From positions 1-24,205 of the IMG/VR virus record IMGVR_UViG_3300045580_000107: a DNA stretch of 24,205 bases; one strand, 5' to 3'. Shown here in pieces: positions 1,225 to 13,698 of this stretch. The notes under the pieces were generated by a model, which was not told where the DNA came from, did no database searches, and saw only the letters and a program-made list of their open reading frames with translations. How positions within the stretch are numbered: position 1 is the first letter of the stretch; each line of letters starts with the position of its first letter. The position numbers and the translations under genes are program-made. This DNA is from a virus (lineage: Duplodnaviria > Caudoviricetes).

Positions 1225-1232
1225 TAAAGTTA
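1225..1232 (-). promoter_or_regulatory. Near-consensus Bacteroidota -7 box (TAACTTTA)
   Basis: One mismatch to TAnnTTTG; overlaps the terL stop codon; 4 nt before ATG 1220. Confidence 0.45.
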
Positions 1233-2408
1233 CACCACCAAGTACTTCCCCGAATTGCTCACGGCCAATTTGTTGAGGGCAACATAGCGCAAGGCATCGC
1301 AGGCGTGGTTGTACGAATCTATCGGCACTCCCGTGTCCTTCCCGTCTTTGTCGGTCGCCCAAGTGTACGAGCGGAGTTCTTTGATTAGGTTGGTGCTATC
1401 CTTGGTCACATGAAGGTTGAACCGCTTCACTATGTCAATGCCCTGCCTGACCGAATCAGGGCCTTTGGATGCGGGTTTGATGTTGAAGCCCAAGCGGTAG
1501 ATTTCCTCAATGCTCTTGGGTTCTGCTGAATCGGCGACAATCTCCCAAGCCCTTGTAATGCCGAACTCCTTCAAGCGGGTGGCGATATCGCTATTGGTCA
1601 GCCCCCGATGGTAGAGCAGTTCGTGGATGAATAGGTCGTCACCCCTGCGATAAACTGCGACCAATGCCGTAGGGTCGTTGCTGAACCCCCAGTCGAGGCC
1701 GTAGGCGACGAATTTCATCGTGGATGGGTCAATACCCTCGACAACCGTGTAATCGCCGTATATCGCACCCTGTAGCGTTCCAACCTGACCCAATCCGTAC
1801 ACCTTCCACCAGTTAGCCCAGTATGCGGATGTTTCGGCTTTGGTGCGGTTCAGTTCGATGTCATTCCGGATAGTATCGGGAAGGGCCTCGTTGTCTTGGT
1901 AGGTCAGGATGAGGAACTCTGCATCCGTTTCGGGTAGGACTTCCGTGTGCGCCCAGAACTCATGCGTGGGGTTGAAGTCGATGTATATCTCCTGCGAGGT
2001 ACGGATGGCCAACTGGTAGTACGAATCGAAGTCGATGTTGTTCGCTTCGTTGATGTAGAGGATTTGCCTCCTTGCCCCTCGGAGCCTTGCCTCCGAATCA
2101 GCCGAAAAGAACTCAATCGTTGAACCGTTGGCGAAGTTGTATTGCAGCAGGGTCTTGTTCCAGCGGTCGGGAACCCAACGATGGGTCCATTGCATAATCT
2201 TGGCGAAGTCCTTAATCGCTCCCCGCCGTAGGTGAGGGACGGATTCGGACACGACCGATATTTCCGACTTAGGAAACCGAGCGGCGTGGTCTATCAGCAC
2301 CGCAAGGATGCCGAAGGTTTTGCTCGCACTTGTCCCGCCTTGGATGACTTTCTTCCGAGCGGTCATCGCCCGAATCTTCTTGATTGCGGTGGTGTACTGG
2401 AACATCAT
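1230..2408 (-). CDS. terL: Terminase large subunit (PBSX/terminase_3 type)
   Basis: Walker A-like QGGTSASKT, Walker B LYINEA, RLRGARR, DFNP, nuclease motifs YGLDWGFSNDP, ADSAEPKSI and NHACDALRY. Start trimmed to ATG 2408/2405 because the longer ORF overlaps a tRNA-like RNA. Confidence 0.95.
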   Translation of the reverse strand: MMFQYTTAIKKIRAMTARKKVIQGGTSASKTFGILAVLIDHAARFPKSEISVVSESVPHLRRGAIKDFAKIMQWTHRWVPDRWNKTLLQYNFANGSTIEFFSADSEARLRGARRQILYINEANNIDFDSYYQLAIRTSQEIYIDFNPTHEFWAHTEVLPETDAEFLILTYQDNEALPDTIRNDIELNRTKAETSAYWANWWKVYGLGQVGTLQGAIYGDYTVVEGIDPSTMKFVAYGLDWGFSNDPTALVAVYRRGDDLFIHELLYHRGLTNSDIATRLKEFGITRAWEIVADSAEPKSIEEIYRLGFNIKPASKGPDSVRQGIDIVKRFNLHVTKDSTNLIKELRSYTWATDKDGKDTGVPIDSYNHACDALRYVALNKLAVSNSGKYLVV

Positions 2409-2429
2409 TTTGTTGGCGTCAACGAAATG
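2406..2429. repeat. 24-bp imperfect palindrome covering the terL start codon
   Basis: CATTTTGTTG-GCGT-CAACGAAATG; arms match 9/10. Confidence 0.7.
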
Positions 2430-2435
2430 GTTTTG

Positions 2436-2503
2436 CGGCCATGGCAGGATTTGAACCTGCAATCATACAAGGTGTTGTATGGGTGGCCTCCCACCACATA
2501 GCC
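2436..2503 (-). ncRNA. Minimal tRNA-like RNA (non-canonical; no standard anticodon loop)
   Basis: Acceptor GGCTATG/CATGGCC; D-like arm GTGG-GAGG-CCAC; arm CATACAA-CACC-TTGTATG (4-nt loop); canonical T arm GCAGG-TTCAAAT-CCTGC; no encoded CCA. Confidence 0.65.
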
Positions 2504-2506
2504 GTG

Positions 2507-2616
2507 TAGTCAGGACAGGAATCGAACCTGTATGTTTACTCGTTTAGGCAATCAGACGAACAACTCTGGACCACTTAACTTTCAACGGTCTGCGTCTACC
2601 ATTCCGCCACCTGACT
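2507..2616 (-). ncRNA. Expanded tRNA-like RNA (Leu-type D arm, aberrant anticodon and variable region)
   Basis: Acceptor AGTCAGG/CCTGACT; D arm TGGCGGAATGGTAGACGC; T arm ACAGG-TTCGATT-CCTGT. The middle holds an elongated GACCG...TGGTC hairpin and a second long hairpin instead of a 5-bp stem/7-nt loop anticodon arm. 110 nt. Confidence 0.75.
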
Positions 2617-2620
2617 GATG

Positions 2621-2628
2621 CAAAGGTA
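2621..2628 (-). promoter_or_regulatory. Bacteroidota -7 promoter box TACCTTTG driving the tRNA-like RNAs
   Basis: Exact TAnnTTTG 4 nt upstream of the RNA 5' end; overlaps a GC-rich hairpin (2626-2650) after the terS stop. Confidence 0.7.
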
Positions 2629-2652
2629 CGGGCCTTTCGTAAACCCGCACCA

Positions 2653-3057
2653 CTACTCCCCAAAAAGCGGCTGCTCGATGGTGATACTCGTTTCCTGCTT
2701 TTCCACCAAGCCGTTCAACCGCTGGGTGATGGAGGGGTTGTAGAACGAGAGCAGGCCCCCGATGATTTGGTCTTCTCGGATTTCTTCCCGAATCGCACGG
2801 CAGATAACCACGAAGTCCTCGTAGTAACCGTCCTTGTTGTCAAAGTACTGCTGAGCATCCCCGTAATTATTGCGACAAAACCGCTTGAACCCTTCCAAGG
2901 TTAGCGGCACTTTTGCGGGGTCTTCCTTCTTTAACCCATCCTTCCCGACATACTGCACCCGCTTCCATTGTTCGCCTTGGACCTTCACATCCTCCTTGAA
3001 GGCGGCCCATGCTTTTTCAAGGTCTTCGGGGGTCTTGAATATCCTCGTTGGGTGCAT
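2653..3057 (-). CDS. terS: Terminase small subunit (DNA-packaging gp3-like)
   Basis: 134 aa with F.TPE.L, PLTLEGF..F, I.EEIREDQIIGG...YN.SITQRLNGLVEK; directly upstream of terL. Confidence 0.85.
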   Translation of the reverse strand: MHPTRIFKTPEDLEKAWAAFKEDVKVQGEQWKRVQYVGKDGLKKEDPAKVPLTLEGFKRFCRNNYGDAQQYFDNKDGYYEDFVVICRAIREEIREDQIIGGLLSFYNPSITQRLNGLVEKQETSITIEQPLFGE

Positions 3058-3616: not shown

Positions 3617-3851
3617 GGCTGACTTGGTGCTGGTTGGTTTCGGCGAACTGGTCCGCCTCTTGGTAAATGTAGGATAGGGCCGATTTTACGCAGTCAGCGC
3701 ACCACCAATTCGTGTTGGGCCGTTCGTGGGCGACGAGGATGGTCTGCAAGTCATGGACCGCTTCGGGGGTCAGCCGCATGAACAGGGCGGCCTGATACTG
3801 GTCCCAATAATGGCGGTGTTTTTCGGCAAGGAGGTATTCCGCTTGTGTCAT
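3591..3851 (-). CDS. Hypothetical protein (CxxC)
   Basis: 86 aa with WWCADCV; ATGA-coupled to the methyltransferase stop. Confidence 0.7.
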   Translation of the reverse strand: MTQAEYLLAEKHRHYWDQYQAALFMRLTPEAVHDLQTILVAHERPNTNWWCADCVKSALSYIYQEADQFAETNQHQVSHALNNPNP

Positions 3852-5141
3852 AGGAGGGTCAGTTGCTTGGGTTGCTTCTGCACTTGTTTAGAGCGTTCCT
3901 GAATGCGTTTCTCGGATATAGCGATGTACTCCGCCTCCCGTTCAATCCCGATGTATTGGAATCCCTCCAAGACCGCAGCGCATCCCGTGGACCCTGACCC
4001 GTTGAATGGGTCAAGGACGATTCCGTTGGGCGGGGTTACAAGGCGGCACAGGTAGCGCATGAGGTCGGTAGGCTTGACGGTGGGGTGGAAATTAGTTCTT
4101 TCTTGAACGCCTCGGTTCCTTGGGTTATCCCCACCAGGGTTGCCCTGTTTGCGGCTTTCATCCATTTGCTTGGAATGCGATCCGTCAAGCCCCGCATCCC
4201 TATCCGCTTTGCTCGCCTTGGCGCAGTAGAAGAAGCGGGCCGAATCTTTGAGCAGGTCGGTGGCTTCCTCGCTTCCATCGTGGATGAAGTTGGCGGGCCA
4301 GCGGCCACCTTCCACCCTTCCCCCATCCACATTAATCGCCCCCGTCCCGTAATGCAGGACATTCTCGGCAACCGTTCCGACCAGCGGCTTTCGGGCCACG
4401 GTTATCGGCTCCAAGGCAGGCTTGAGAGCAGTCCCCCAGCCTTCCCATTGCTTTGCGGCATCGGTGGCGGGGGCGGTGATGTTTCCACCAGCCTGACCGA
4501 GACGCTCTCCACCAAGCCCTCCCATGTCCGTTTTGTGCTTCCCCACCACCTCCCGCTCGGCAAAATTCTTACTTTCAACGCTGCGAATGTCTGCCTCTTG
4601 CTCAACCCATGCAGGAACTTCGCCAAGCAAATGGCGACACGCCTCCAAGTGTTCACGGGTCATAATAGCGGGCTGACTTGCTGCGGTCGTATAGTGTCCA
4701 CGCATATTTGGTTGCAGTCGCTTCATCAATCTGCTTGGAAGTTACCCTCGTAGAACGAACCCACTCCGTGAACCTATATCGCCTCGCTTGTTGTTCTTCT
4801 GCTGCGTCCATCTTATCAATCGCCTTGCTCACATCCAACGACTTCGGAAACCCCGACCCGTACACCCACGCAATCATATCCCGAATCTCAAAGCCTGCAT
4901 CCTCAATCCTTATAGCCATGCGGTGCTGCGTCCTCGTCCCCGCAAAGGCCAGCAGATGACCCCCAGGCTTCAAGACCCGAAGGCACTCCACCCATACATC
5001 AACGCTTGGCACATCGTAGTCCCACTTCTTGCCCATGAAGGACAACCCATAGGGCGGGTCGGTAACGATTGAATCCACGCTGCAATCGGGCATGGACCGC
5101 AACACTTCAAGGCAATCGCCGTGGTGCAGTTGGTAGGTCAT
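3848..5141 (-). pseudogene. Beta-class N6/N4 DNA methyltransferase split by a 1-nt frameshift near 4707-4709
   Basis: N-terminal frame from ATG 5141: GDCLEVL...VTDPPYG...GFPKS. C-terminal frame: WGTALKPA.EPI..ARKP, RFFYCAKAS, HPTVKP..LMRYL, LDPFNGSGSTG. Removing one A from ACC-AAA-TAT joins them. Could be an assembly error. Confidence 0.8.
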
Positions 5142-5389
5142 CGGTTGGTGAGTTGCAGGATGACAACCGTAAGCCCCGCCGAGGCGAGGCCGTACACGGG
5201 AGCGAGAACCCATCCGCAAGTGGGCAAGGTCAGGGCCACCGCCACCCAAAAGGTGAGGCAGGTGACGCAACTGAACGGCTTGTGCCTTCCCAGCCAAGTC
5301 GTGTACCACCATTGGGGGAGGACATGGTACTCGGCAATGGCGAGGGCGGTCAGCGAACTAATCAGCAGGGGAAATATCAGCGTGTCCAT
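5138..5389 (-). CDS. Membrane protein with KPFSCxxC..FW motif (DUF1360-like)
   Basis: 83 aa, 2-3 hydrophobic segments, KPFSCVTCLTFW. Confidence 0.7.
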   Translation of the reverse strand: MDTLIFPLLISSLTALAIAEYHVLPQWWYTTWLGRHKPFSCVTCLTFWVAVALTLPTCGWVLAPVYGLASAGLTVVILQLTNR

Positions 5390-12329: not shown

Positions 12330-12470
12330 TTAGGATGGATTTTGGATTAATGTAATTTTAACGGATTGATGGTCTGCGAGTAATTCAAATATGATGCGGG
12401 CCGCCTCTAACTTGTTTGCACAAATTTGAGTGTAACCTTCGCCCCAACTAATTTTGTAAACCTTTTTCAT
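12330..12470 (-). CDS. Hypothetical protein (46 aa)
   Basis: Hand translation MKKVYKISWGEGYTQICANKLEAARIIFELLADHQSVKITLIQNPS*; fills the gap. Confidence 0.55.
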   Translation of the reverse strand: MKKVYKISWGEGYTQICANKLEAARIIFELLADHQSVKITLIQNPS

Positions 12471-12482
12471 TGCTTATTGGGT

Positions 12483-12602
12483 TTAGTGGGTGATAATTGC
12501 AAGGATGAATCTGCCGAAGAATGCGATGCCGAGCATGGTTGCCAGCAGGATGTAGCCCGTAATGAGGGCTGCTTTGAGTTTGGCTTGGGTTTCGTGGTTC
12601 AT
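12483..12602 (-). CDS. Small membrane protein (39 aa)
   Basis: Hand translation MNHETQAKLKAALITGYILLATMLGIAFFGRFILAIITH*; AAACCC-ATG context. Confidence 0.65.
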   Translation of the reverse strand: MNHETQAKLKAALITGYILLATMLGIAFFGRFILAIITH

Positions 12603-12628
12603 GGGTTTGAGGTTTGAGGTTAAAGAAT

Positions 12629-12653
12629 GTGCGTTGGCGAGTCGCACCCCTCG
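12629..12653 (-). other. Compact intergenic RNA structure (possible H-type pseudoknot)
   Basis: CGAG-GG-GTGCG-A-CTCG-CCAA-CGCAC: crossing stems CGAG/CTCG and GTGCG/CGCAC. Confidence 0.5.
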
Positions 12654-12658
12654 GTTGG

Positions 12659-12862
12659 TTAAAGTTTAAAATCCTGAATTTTTATGCCGTTTGAAGTTGG
12701 GTAATTCCCACATCCATCCTGCCATACTTCCCAAACTACACCGTTTACGTTGTAGTAGGTGTCGTTCCCTTTCATCCCAATATAGGATGAGGTTCTATTA
12801 TTATTAATAAATTCGGCAGCTGCGATTGTTACTTCTGGGTTTGTGTAAATTGATGTTCTCAT
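12659..12862 (-). CDS. Hypothetical protein, first gene of the early operon
   Basis: 67 aa, AT-rich, directly downstream of the promoter at 12894-12901. Confidence 0.7.
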   Translation of the reverse strand: MRTSIYTNPEVTIAAAEFINNNRTSSYIGMKGNDTYYNVNGVVWEVWQDGCGNYPTSNGIKIQDFKL

Positions 12863-12889
12863 GGTTTTTTGGTTTAGTGGTTGGTTTGT

Positions 12890-12902
12890 AGGTCAAAGAT
12901 AC
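12890..12902 (-). promoter_or_regulatory. Early leftward promoter core GTATCTTTGACCT
   Basis: Exact TAnnTTTG (12894-12901) at the divergence point; all 13 nt are identical to 22508-22520. Confidence 0.75.
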
Positions 12903-13006
12903 GGCGGTTTTCCTATTTGCGACCTCTCGTGTCATTTTTTTTTAAGTATTTGCACCCGATGCGGTATAAATTCCCATTTTTCGCCATATTTTGACGCTAT
13001 CGGGTA

Positions 13007-13014
13007 TAAATTTG
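13007..13014 (+). promoter_or_regulatory. Rightward -7 box TAAATTTG
   Basis: Exact TAnnTTTG 4 nt before ATG 13019; overlaps the second copy of direct repeat GGTATAAATT (12963-12972, 13003-13012). Confidence 0.65.
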
Positions 13015-13018
13015 CAGT

Positions 13019-13270
13019 ATGACCTACCACTCTACCCGACCCGCCAAAGCCCTCACGAATGCGTTGGAGCGGCTTATGATTGCGATATCCCCCCAAGACC
13101 TGGAGCAGAACCACGCCCTCCTGTGCGAGTATCGCAGGGCTTGCGAACTGCTGGGCTACGATCCAGCCAAAGCCCAATGGTCAGGGATCCACGAAGTGTC
13201 TGCATCCCAGTTACCCAAGGACGAAGACCACACCGTCTGCTATTACCCACTACTTAACCCCGAAGAATAA
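13019..13270 (+). CDS. Hypothetical protein
   Basis: 83 aa, 2 nt upstream of the amidase. Confidence 0.65.
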   Translation: MTYHSTRPAKALTNALERLMIAISPQDLEQNHALLCEYRRACELLGYDPAKAQWSGIHEVSASQLPKDEDHTVCYYPLLNPEE

Positions 13271-13272
13271 CC

Positions 13273-13698
13273 ATGCGAAACATCACCCACCTCGTCGTCC
13301 ATTGCACGGCCACACCGAAGAACACCACCATCGCATCCATCCGCCGCCATTGGAAGGAGGGGTTAGGTTGGAAGTCGGTGGGCTACCACAAAATCATTGA
13401 GGCCAACGGGAACATCCTCACCCTTGCGACCGATGACAAAGTGACCAACGGGGTTGCAGGACACAATGCTACATCCCTCCATGTGTCCTATATCGGCGGT
13501 AAGGATAGCGACGACCGCACCATTCAGCAACGCCAAGCCATCGCAGGAGTCCTACTCTCTTGGTTGCAGAAATATCCGAAGGCCCGCATTTGCGGACACA
13601 GGGACTTCCCAGGTGTGACCAAAGCCTGCCCGCAGTTTAATGCGGAGAAGGAGTACGGGTACCTTTACTTAACCGCCAACGATACGCAAGAGGGATAA
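13273..13698 (+). CDS. N-acetylmuramoyl-L-alanine amidase endolysin (T7 lysozyme-like, Amidase_2)
   Basis: LVVHCTAT, GW..VGYH, GV.GHN..S..V.Y.GG, GHRDF...KACP.F: zinc ligands His/His/Cys and catalytic Tyr/Lys. Confidence 0.93.
   Translation: MRNITHLVVHCTATPKNTTIASIRRHWKEGLGWKSVGYHKIIEANGNILTLATDDKVTNGVAGHNATSLHVSYIGGKDSDDRTIQQRQAIAGVLLSWLQKYPKARICGHRDFPGVTKACPQFNAEKEYGYLYLTANDTQEG

Follow-up and report, generated by a model that had tools for sequence, protein, structure and literature searches.

The junction between the terminase genes of a freshwater Caudoviricetes phage (IMG/VR record IMGVR_UViG_3300045580_000107; the 24,205-nt stretch analysed, positions 1 to 24,205 of the record, is referred to below as the window) carries two tandem tRNA-like RNAs with a constant upper half (acceptor, T arm and D–T elbow) and a free lower half, and the cassette that they form is patchily present among related phages, which exchange its interior. 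We read these RNAs as accessory, horizontally shuffled phage tRNA mimics that would act as abundant non-decoding decoys for anti-phage effectors binding the tRNA upper half, a reading to which we assign a probability of roughly 40%.

Layout of the cassette

The minus-strand order is terS (stop at 2653, the stop codon adjoining the cassette), TACCTTTG, four bases, RNA1, CAC, RNA2, a leader and terL, with the following features:

2653..3057 (minus strand): terS, terminase small subunit (phrog_606, E 8e-8; PF16677 below cut-off)
2626..2650 (minus strand): sequence-predicted hairpin separating the terS stop from the −7 box
2621..2628 (minus strand): Bacteroidota sigma-A −7 box TAnnTTTG, predicting +1 at 2616
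2507..2616 (minus strand): RNA1, 110 nt, with A73 at 2507 (Rfam tRNA match, fold and family statistics)
2616–2610/2514–2508 (minus strand): RNA1 acceptor stem
2607–2592 (minus strand): RNA1 Leu-type D arm
2532..2591 (minus strand): RNA1 interior, 60 nt, exchangeable, with no canonical anticodon arm
2531–2515 (minus strand): RNA1 T arm
2504..2506 (minus strand): spacer CAC, 3 nt (C74-A; CCA not encoded)
2436..2503 (minus strand): RNA2, compact tRNA-like RNA, 68 nt, with G73
2503–2497/2443–2437 (minus strand): RNA2 acceptor stem
remainder of RNA2: reduced D arm with GG, 7-bp stem with 4-nt loop, 3-nt variable loop, T arm
2409..2435 (minus strand): leader from RNA2 to the terL start codon, 27 nt
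1230..2408 (minus strand): terL, terminase large subunit, ATG at 2408 (phrog_2, E 9e-34)

A 17-codon upstream extension of terL (TTG at 2462) and an antisense ORF (2232–2501) were both dropped, since TerL of relatives begins at the ATG. Among cultured phages, the TerL closest to that of the window belongs to Flavobacterium phage FpV (51% identity), and the phage therefore probably infects a Bacteroidota host. Variants of the 2626–2650 hairpin stem are found in cassette-bearing relatives (e.g. L002, L003, L006).

Elsewhere in the window, a phrog_67 DNA methyltransferase (3848–5312, minus strand) is split over two overlapping ORFs (profile positions 117–229 and 228–350), which may represent a frameshift or a two-gene form. 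An amidase/endolysin gene (13273–13698, plus strand) lies on the strand opposite to the other 37 scanned genes and adjoins a long AT-rich intergenic region (about 12330–13270).

Both RNAs keep the upper half of a tRNA and lack an anticodon arm

An earlier note on this DNA had described the two RNAs as a tandem pair, 3 nt apart, with intact acceptor stems, canonical T arms and no normal anticodon arm, and our analysis bears this out: on the minus strand, 3 nt separate two RNAs that each have a 7-bp acceptor stem and a T arm with a 5-bp stem and a TTCRA loop. A canonical anticodon arm (5-bp stem, 7-nt loop, U33, purine 37) is present in neither, the loop of RNA1 being 12 nt long and RNA2 having a 7-bp stem closed by a 4-nt loop. 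Two details needed revision. Of the ‘two long hairpins’ ascribed to RNA1, the first stands (5-bp stem, 12-nt loop, pair probabilities 0.72–0.85) but the second is weak and ambiguous, the interior after the first hairpin being a weakly folded 37-nt stretch; the 4-nt D loop described for RNA2 is found in the window allele, whereas homologous alleles have a 3-bp D stem and an AA-GG loop.

RNA2 folds as a cloverleaf (z −3.78, with 0 of 200 shuffles equally stable), and RNA1 alone is not unusually stable (z −0.75, 37 of 200 shuffles as stable). RNA1 scores 39.8 bits against the Rfam tRNA model (RF00005), with a long insert, and RNA2 goes unreported by Rfam; the sole ARAGORN call is RNA2 as tRNA-???, RNA1 remaining uncalled. 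Standard tRNA finders miss or mislabel RNAs of this type. A strict cloverleaf-frame test found two frames in the window versus none in 30 Markov simulations. RF00005 is the only Rfam 15 family to pass, none of the others (C4, Y RNA, tmRNA, GOLLD etc.) reaching gathering score, and ARAGORN found no tmRNA in the window. The acceptor/T branch of both RNAs is 7/5, and the tRNA-Sec model scores 17.5 bits against a cut-off of 47; an allo-tRNA- or tRNA-Sec-like identity (8/4, 9/3 or 8/5 branch with an anticodon) was rejected because the branch is 7/5. As judged by sequence, RNA1 shows A73, U8–A14, A15–U48, G18–U55, G19–C56 and A20a; RNA2 has G73 and G14.

A predicted promoter at the first nucleotide of RNA1

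In Flavobacterium the TAnnTTTG box sits at −12 to −5, according to a published study (PMC9723704), and +1 is therefore predicted at A1 of RNA1. This agrees with the earlier proposal that transcription could begin at the mature 5′ end, made from the position of TACCTTTG (2628–2621, minus strand), 4 nt ahead of RNA1. The 4-nt spacing recurs in 14 of the 26 family members that have a box within 40 nt. A sigma-70 promoter scan returned 0 sites, its consensus not being relevant to Bacteroidota.

Among the 24 runs listed, 20 contained a small share of the sequence words (0.15 at most). Among four RNA libraries, contigs cover RNA1-type sequence; being assembled only, they cannot reveal transcription or RNA ends. 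Contigs of one library spanned RNA1 only, continuing into sequence of other phages; in another, the contig of a relative runs across RNA1–RNA2–terL, and of the differences it shows some preserve the pairing in RNA2 whereas others may disrupt it.

The cassette is optional and its parts are exchanged among near-identical phages

Our TerL search yielded 80 loci, of which 77 were analysed (three without the TerL N-terminus were dropped) and a further seven had 300 nt or less upstream. In the 1 kb preceding terL, RNA1 was present in 8 of the 26 loci at 94% TerL identity or above and in 4 of 44 below, the cassette thus being absent from 18 of 26 near-identical phages and from 40 of 44 at lower identity. 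In most cassette-less loci terS directly abuts terL, or a different gene lies between them. Five unrelated interiors stand between identical flanks in the 8 close loci, and eight in all 12. On a quick TerL tree the cassette is scattered (11 of 60 rows, 9 changes, with 66 of 500 shuffles as low).

A second optional slot lies ~3.9 kb downstream of the terL start, with 7 of 16 distinct junctions filled (two of these found via the scaffold itself) and 9 empty. The inserted unit consists of the −7 box, four bases and nucleotides 1–72 and is flanked by a stop codon and by an ACAC, the latter providing A73-C-A (examples, beyond the window’s end: L005:7985, L044:7839, L049:5633, L057:4248, L072:7958).

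RNA2 has three main alleles, with G or A as the discriminator, and its 5′ end directly follows the RNA1 3′ end in 45 of the 45 loci where it was found; a pattern for this 5′ end retrieved the same clade only, plus chance matches. Combinations of RNA1 and RNA2 number at least seven (loci not de-duplicated by contig), so that RNA2, a compact variant, is evidently re-assorted among RNA1 alleles.

Further variants were seen at this junction. A third tRNA-like RNA, with another acceptor stem and a long interior, directly precedes terL in L078 (3902–3996) and also in L067 and L081. An RNA1 allele in L002 (3817–3905) and L004 retains the acceptor stem, but its canonical T arm is gone and its D arm is incomplete. 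An HNH-like frame, recognised by eye, lies in or interrupts the terS–terL junction in L026, L027, L028 and L030, and in L028 it comes after the RNA cassette and the first terL codons. The window also encodes a Rad52-family single-strand annealing protein (PF04098; 11688–12326, minus strand), a plausible agent of short-homology cassette exchange.

These distributions bear on two alternatives. The first is a packaging RNA resembling the phi29 pRNA, as the location between the terminase genes might suggest; packaging-associated RNAs were among the options of the earlier note. Since 18 of the 26 phages at 94% TerL identity or above are without the cassette, it is not group-wide, family members also occupy tRNA arrays and other slots, and a packaging role is largely refuted. 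The second is a neutral or selfish module, namely a decayed tRNA-Leu whose constant ends serve as recombination hubs spreading a promoter-plus-RNA unit. The clean presence or absence at two slots, the T arm lost from RNA1 of L002 and L004 and the Rad52-family recombinase fit such a module, but tertiary-contact covariation and compensated stems (see below) indicate selection on RNA structure, and we regard it as very unlikely. With phages that are near-isogenic apart from the cassette, the question of function becomes one of simple swap and competition assays.

The scaffold recurs widely in phages with pairing conserved

Exact 16-mer and 20-mer scaffold patterns occur in an estimated ~1,700 and ~2,000 stored IMG/VR stretches, respectively (stretches, not genomes). 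Pooling the viral loci brought the large phage family to which RNA1 belongs to 190 distinct members, whose interiors measure 16–140 nt, and a T-arm-anchored scan gave 169 distinct sequences, 157 of them with a recognisable 5′ end. Conserved among the 157 are A14 (143), A15 (142), U48 (133), the D-loop GG (141), A73 (142), C74 (152) and U at −1 (130); C75 is present in only 7. Positions 15 and 48 covary, with A–U in 125 members and G–C in 6 of the 7 cases of G15, which points to an L-shaped core. The cloverleaf-frame test, the kept pairing and this covariation uphold the earlier view of the RNAs as non-decoding tRNA mimics and not products of random decay.

As the 3′ acceptor strand was fixed by the search pattern, we additionally scanned with the D arm alone. 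The 118 viral matches comprised 41 canonical tRNA-Leu, 34 non-canonical and 43 unparsed sequences; 13 of the 34 have the AGUCAGG acceptor and the remainder other paired acceptor stems. Because pairing is kept in other acceptor sequences, the class is wider than the AGUCAGG subfamily, and pairing outweighs sequence.

The family is essentially phage-bound. Among bacterial genomes, 9 of 121 pattern matches are scaffolds, all on MAG contigs of mixed taxonomy that probably represent phage contigs in bins; plasmids gave two 23-nt matches only, and blastn of the cassette against cultured phages returned only short D- or T-arm matches, none covering 80% of the query. Members also occur in tRNA arrays and other slots, many with no gene directly behind them, and one genome carries six copies with six different interiors within 2.8 kb.

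The leucine-like features of RNA1 raise the possibility of a leucyl-RNA working outside the ribosome, with RNA1, once charged by LeuRS, donating leucine or sequestering LeuRS or EF-Tu. RNA1 has the A73, U8–A14, A15–U48, G18G19 and A20a mentioned above and a D arm nearly identical to those of four Bacteroidota tRNA-Leu genes, and LeuRS, by E. coli and Aquifex rules (PMC9976931, PMC2377443), requires neither the anticodon arm nor the variable-arm sequence. All seven scored leucine features are present in only 74 of 157 members, however; some have type I D arms, RNA2 as it occurs here has G73 and G14, and the window shows no gene for a partner enzyme. Since RNA2 lacks the full set and so do many members, shape appears to outweigh leucine identity, and we consider a leucyl-RNA distinctly unlikely.

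An action in cis is also conceivable: an RNA at +1 would shield the 5′ end of the late mRNA as a cap, or an RNase Z cut would set the terL leader. It would account for the promoter directly at A1, the terL start 2–27 nt past the discriminator in cassette alleles, the repetition of the promoter–RNA–gene layout at the second slot and the U at −1 of 130 of 157 members. Yet terL is expressed without the cassette in most relatives (absent from 18 of 26, and from 40 of 44 at lower identity), many members belong to tRNA arrays and are not immediately followed by a gene, and a processing signal has no need of two tandem copies. The terL-specific signal suggested in the earlier note does not survive these observations, given the 18 of 26 near-identical phages without the cassette and the family’s presence in tRNA arrays and other slots, and we judge a cis element in general unlikely.

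The interiors are hypervariable and mostly lack shared structure

The 190 members fall into 153 interior clusters, 127 of them singletons. In folding stability the interiors slightly exceed the DNA that flanks them (140 vs 137 sequences; median z −0.52 vs −0.34, p 0.035). One family of six interior sequences (L101, L123, L128, L169, L199, L651) shows both-side changes at 3 of the 8 pairs of its main helix, with the caveat that related sequences can beat the shuffle control, and may form a CCA/UGG pseudoknot; some interiors thus appear to be under selection, with compensatory changes in at least one family. The interior of the window recurs with few changes in other contexts (L399, L402). An Rfam scan of 20 loci returned no family beyond tRNA at gathering score.

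Such interiors could be the working part of a natural tRNA-scaffold carrier, in which the tRNA body is a processing and stability handle and the interior, as a small RNA or an aptamer that binds a protein, does the work and differs from allele to allele. The unrelated interiors that near-identical phages carry within shared flanks, the helix of the six-sequence family, the recurrence of the window interior in L399 and L402 and the multiple copies in a genome, each with its own interior, all favour a carrier. Against it count the 127 singletons among 153 interior types with stability marginally above control DNA, the Rfam result (tRNA alone passing in the 20 loci), the RNA2 interior, which is a single 7-bp hairpin, and the lack of a significant antisense match for the window interiors; on balance we find the carrier doubtful. 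The scaffold for antisense loops proposed earlier found no footing: beyond the cassette itself there was no significant antisense or sense match in the window or the 77 TerL loci (best E 4.2).

A decoding tRNA that matures by intron removal has some resemblance in its favour. The 12-nt loop of RNA1 starts UUGAAAG, like a Phe anticodon loop plus 5 nt, and a few family members have normal-looking anticodon arms. A 37-nt variable region would nevertheless persist after removal of the five bases, and anticodon arms are at chance level family-wide (4 of 153 interior types vs a mean of 1.8, maximum 5, in 50 shuffles). Five bases are far too few for a group I intron. We rejected an intron-containing tRNA on the grounds of these mere five extra bases and of the Rfam scan, in which no intron family appeared. 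Like the packaging role, the decoding reading is largely refuted, and we give either next to no credence. The members with normal-looking anticodon arms (e.g. UUU, UAU), at L553:400–469, L597, L072:8104–8177 and L114:317–391, may be working tRNAs.

The RNAs as putative upper-half decoys

Under the decoy reading, host sigma-A would initiate at A1 of RNA1, RNase P plus RNase Z or exonucleases would liberate both RNAs, the host would add the CCA tail, and RNA1 might be leucylated. If unable to enter the ribosomal decoding site, the RNAs would remain free and could compete for tail-cutting or tail-modifying effectors of the Cas12a3, toxSAS/CapRel or MenT type, so that genuine tRNAs would be spared in late infection. 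In this view the interior is either filler that the RNA tolerates or a module of secondary importance, replaced when recombination takes place in the constant sequences on either side. The conserved portion is what tRNA-end effectors read, the optional, scattered occurrence of the cassette is common among counter-defence genes, and the interior is hypervariable, little structured and without an anticodon arm. Cas12a3, described from a Bacteroidetes bacterium, holds its substrate by the T arm, the acceptor stem and the CCA end, and tRNAs from which the other loops are missing are still cleaved; according to its authors, viral tRNAs do not readily escape it and the route to resistance is unknown (PMC12851939). 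ToxSAS/CapRel and MenT attack the acceptor end too (bioRxiv 10.64898/2026.07.10.737580).

The decoys of anticodon nucleases that had been proposed earlier are unsupported, because the anticodon region is the non-conserved part. Upper-half decoys face difficulties of their own: a cleavable substrate is a weak decoy versus a multiple-turnover nuclease; ordinary extra tRNAs would compete as well, so that a decoy has no need to lose the anticodon arm; compensatory changes occur in at least one interior family; and the presence in 2.8 kb of as many as six copies, no two alike in their interiors, fits cargo equally. No link from the window phage to a host or a defence system could be made. A broader version, in which these RNAs form a very large uncatalogued phage RNA counter-defence class of upper-half decoys, with an exchangeable interior that maybe carries allele-specific aptamers, is put forward tentatively, as a possibility; the class would titrate effectors directed at the tRNA 3′ end and would be the resistance route sought for Cas12a3. 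If the RNAs are decoys, they would give phages an RNA-level answer to defences from which modified phage tRNAs offer no escape.

Comparison with known systems

RNAs of this kind are already known from the annotation of phage T5, where they are unexplained. Within the literature covered, which left most subscription papers and the old T5 work outside its scope, we found no description of the family’s scale or cassette behaviour. The family may be among the 10,006 unnamed candidates of Fremin et al. 2023 (PMC10690425), and the scaffold string is missing from four supplementary files of that study. New here are the near-isogenic presence/absence and allele series, a promoter predicted exactly at +1 and the compact RNA2; hundreds of natural alleles reveal which half of the RNA is selected.

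Similarity to cellular tRNAs is closest for Bacteroidota class II tRNA-Leu, which shares the D arm, core contacts, A73 and CCA-less C74-A/U tail; D arm and CCA-less tail are common to four tRNA-Leu genes of Bacteroidota MAGs. Unlike these, the cassette RNAs have no 5-bp/7-nt anticodon arm, and the A1–U72 AGUCAGG acceptor occurs in 0 of 45 canonical Leu genes parsed. An engineered tRNA scaffold for recombinant RNA resembles RNA1 in that an insert takes the place of the anticodon arm in a tRNA body, and mascRNA resembles RNA2 as a compact cloverleaf processing signal; the former being artificial and the latter eukaryotic, the likeness is one of shape only. Allo-tRNAs (Mukai et al. 2017, reviewed in PMC7609411) likewise have non-canonical shapes, are in some cases translation-inactive and lie in polycistrons; they have 8/4 or 9/3 branches and anticodons, whereas the cassette RNAs are 7/5 and have none.

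Phage T4 rnaC and rnaD (species 1 and 2) are encoded in the tRNA region and form stable late RNAs to which no function has been assigned (PMC9697503, PMC3014915). A canonical T arm is shared by rnaC, but in neither is a Leu-type D arm visible within the annotated bounds, and rnaD shows no canonical T loop. A convergent rnaD change in a T4-like phage evolved on one host strain (PMC12685909) is a weak hint that such RNAs might have a host-dependent role.

The closest known RNAs, as judged by sequence comparison, appear to be T5 RNA1 and RNA2 (NC_005859 30501–30644 and 32959–33083), annotated as ‘tRNA-like stable RNA with unknown functions’. Like the cassette RNAs, both have an acceptor stem and a canonical T arm enclosing a long non-anticodon interior; T5 RNA1 has the same Leu-type D arm, and T5 RNA2 a near-identical T arm and a genomic A-C-A end. 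They differ in their irregular or 8-bp acceptor stems, their location in a tRNA array and their unrelated interiors, and neither a swappable allele series nor a dedicated +1 promoter is annotated for them. The tRNA-like stable RNAs of T4 and T5 have gone decades without a function; if the class of upper-half decoys is real, it would supply one for T5 RNA1 and RNA2 as well.
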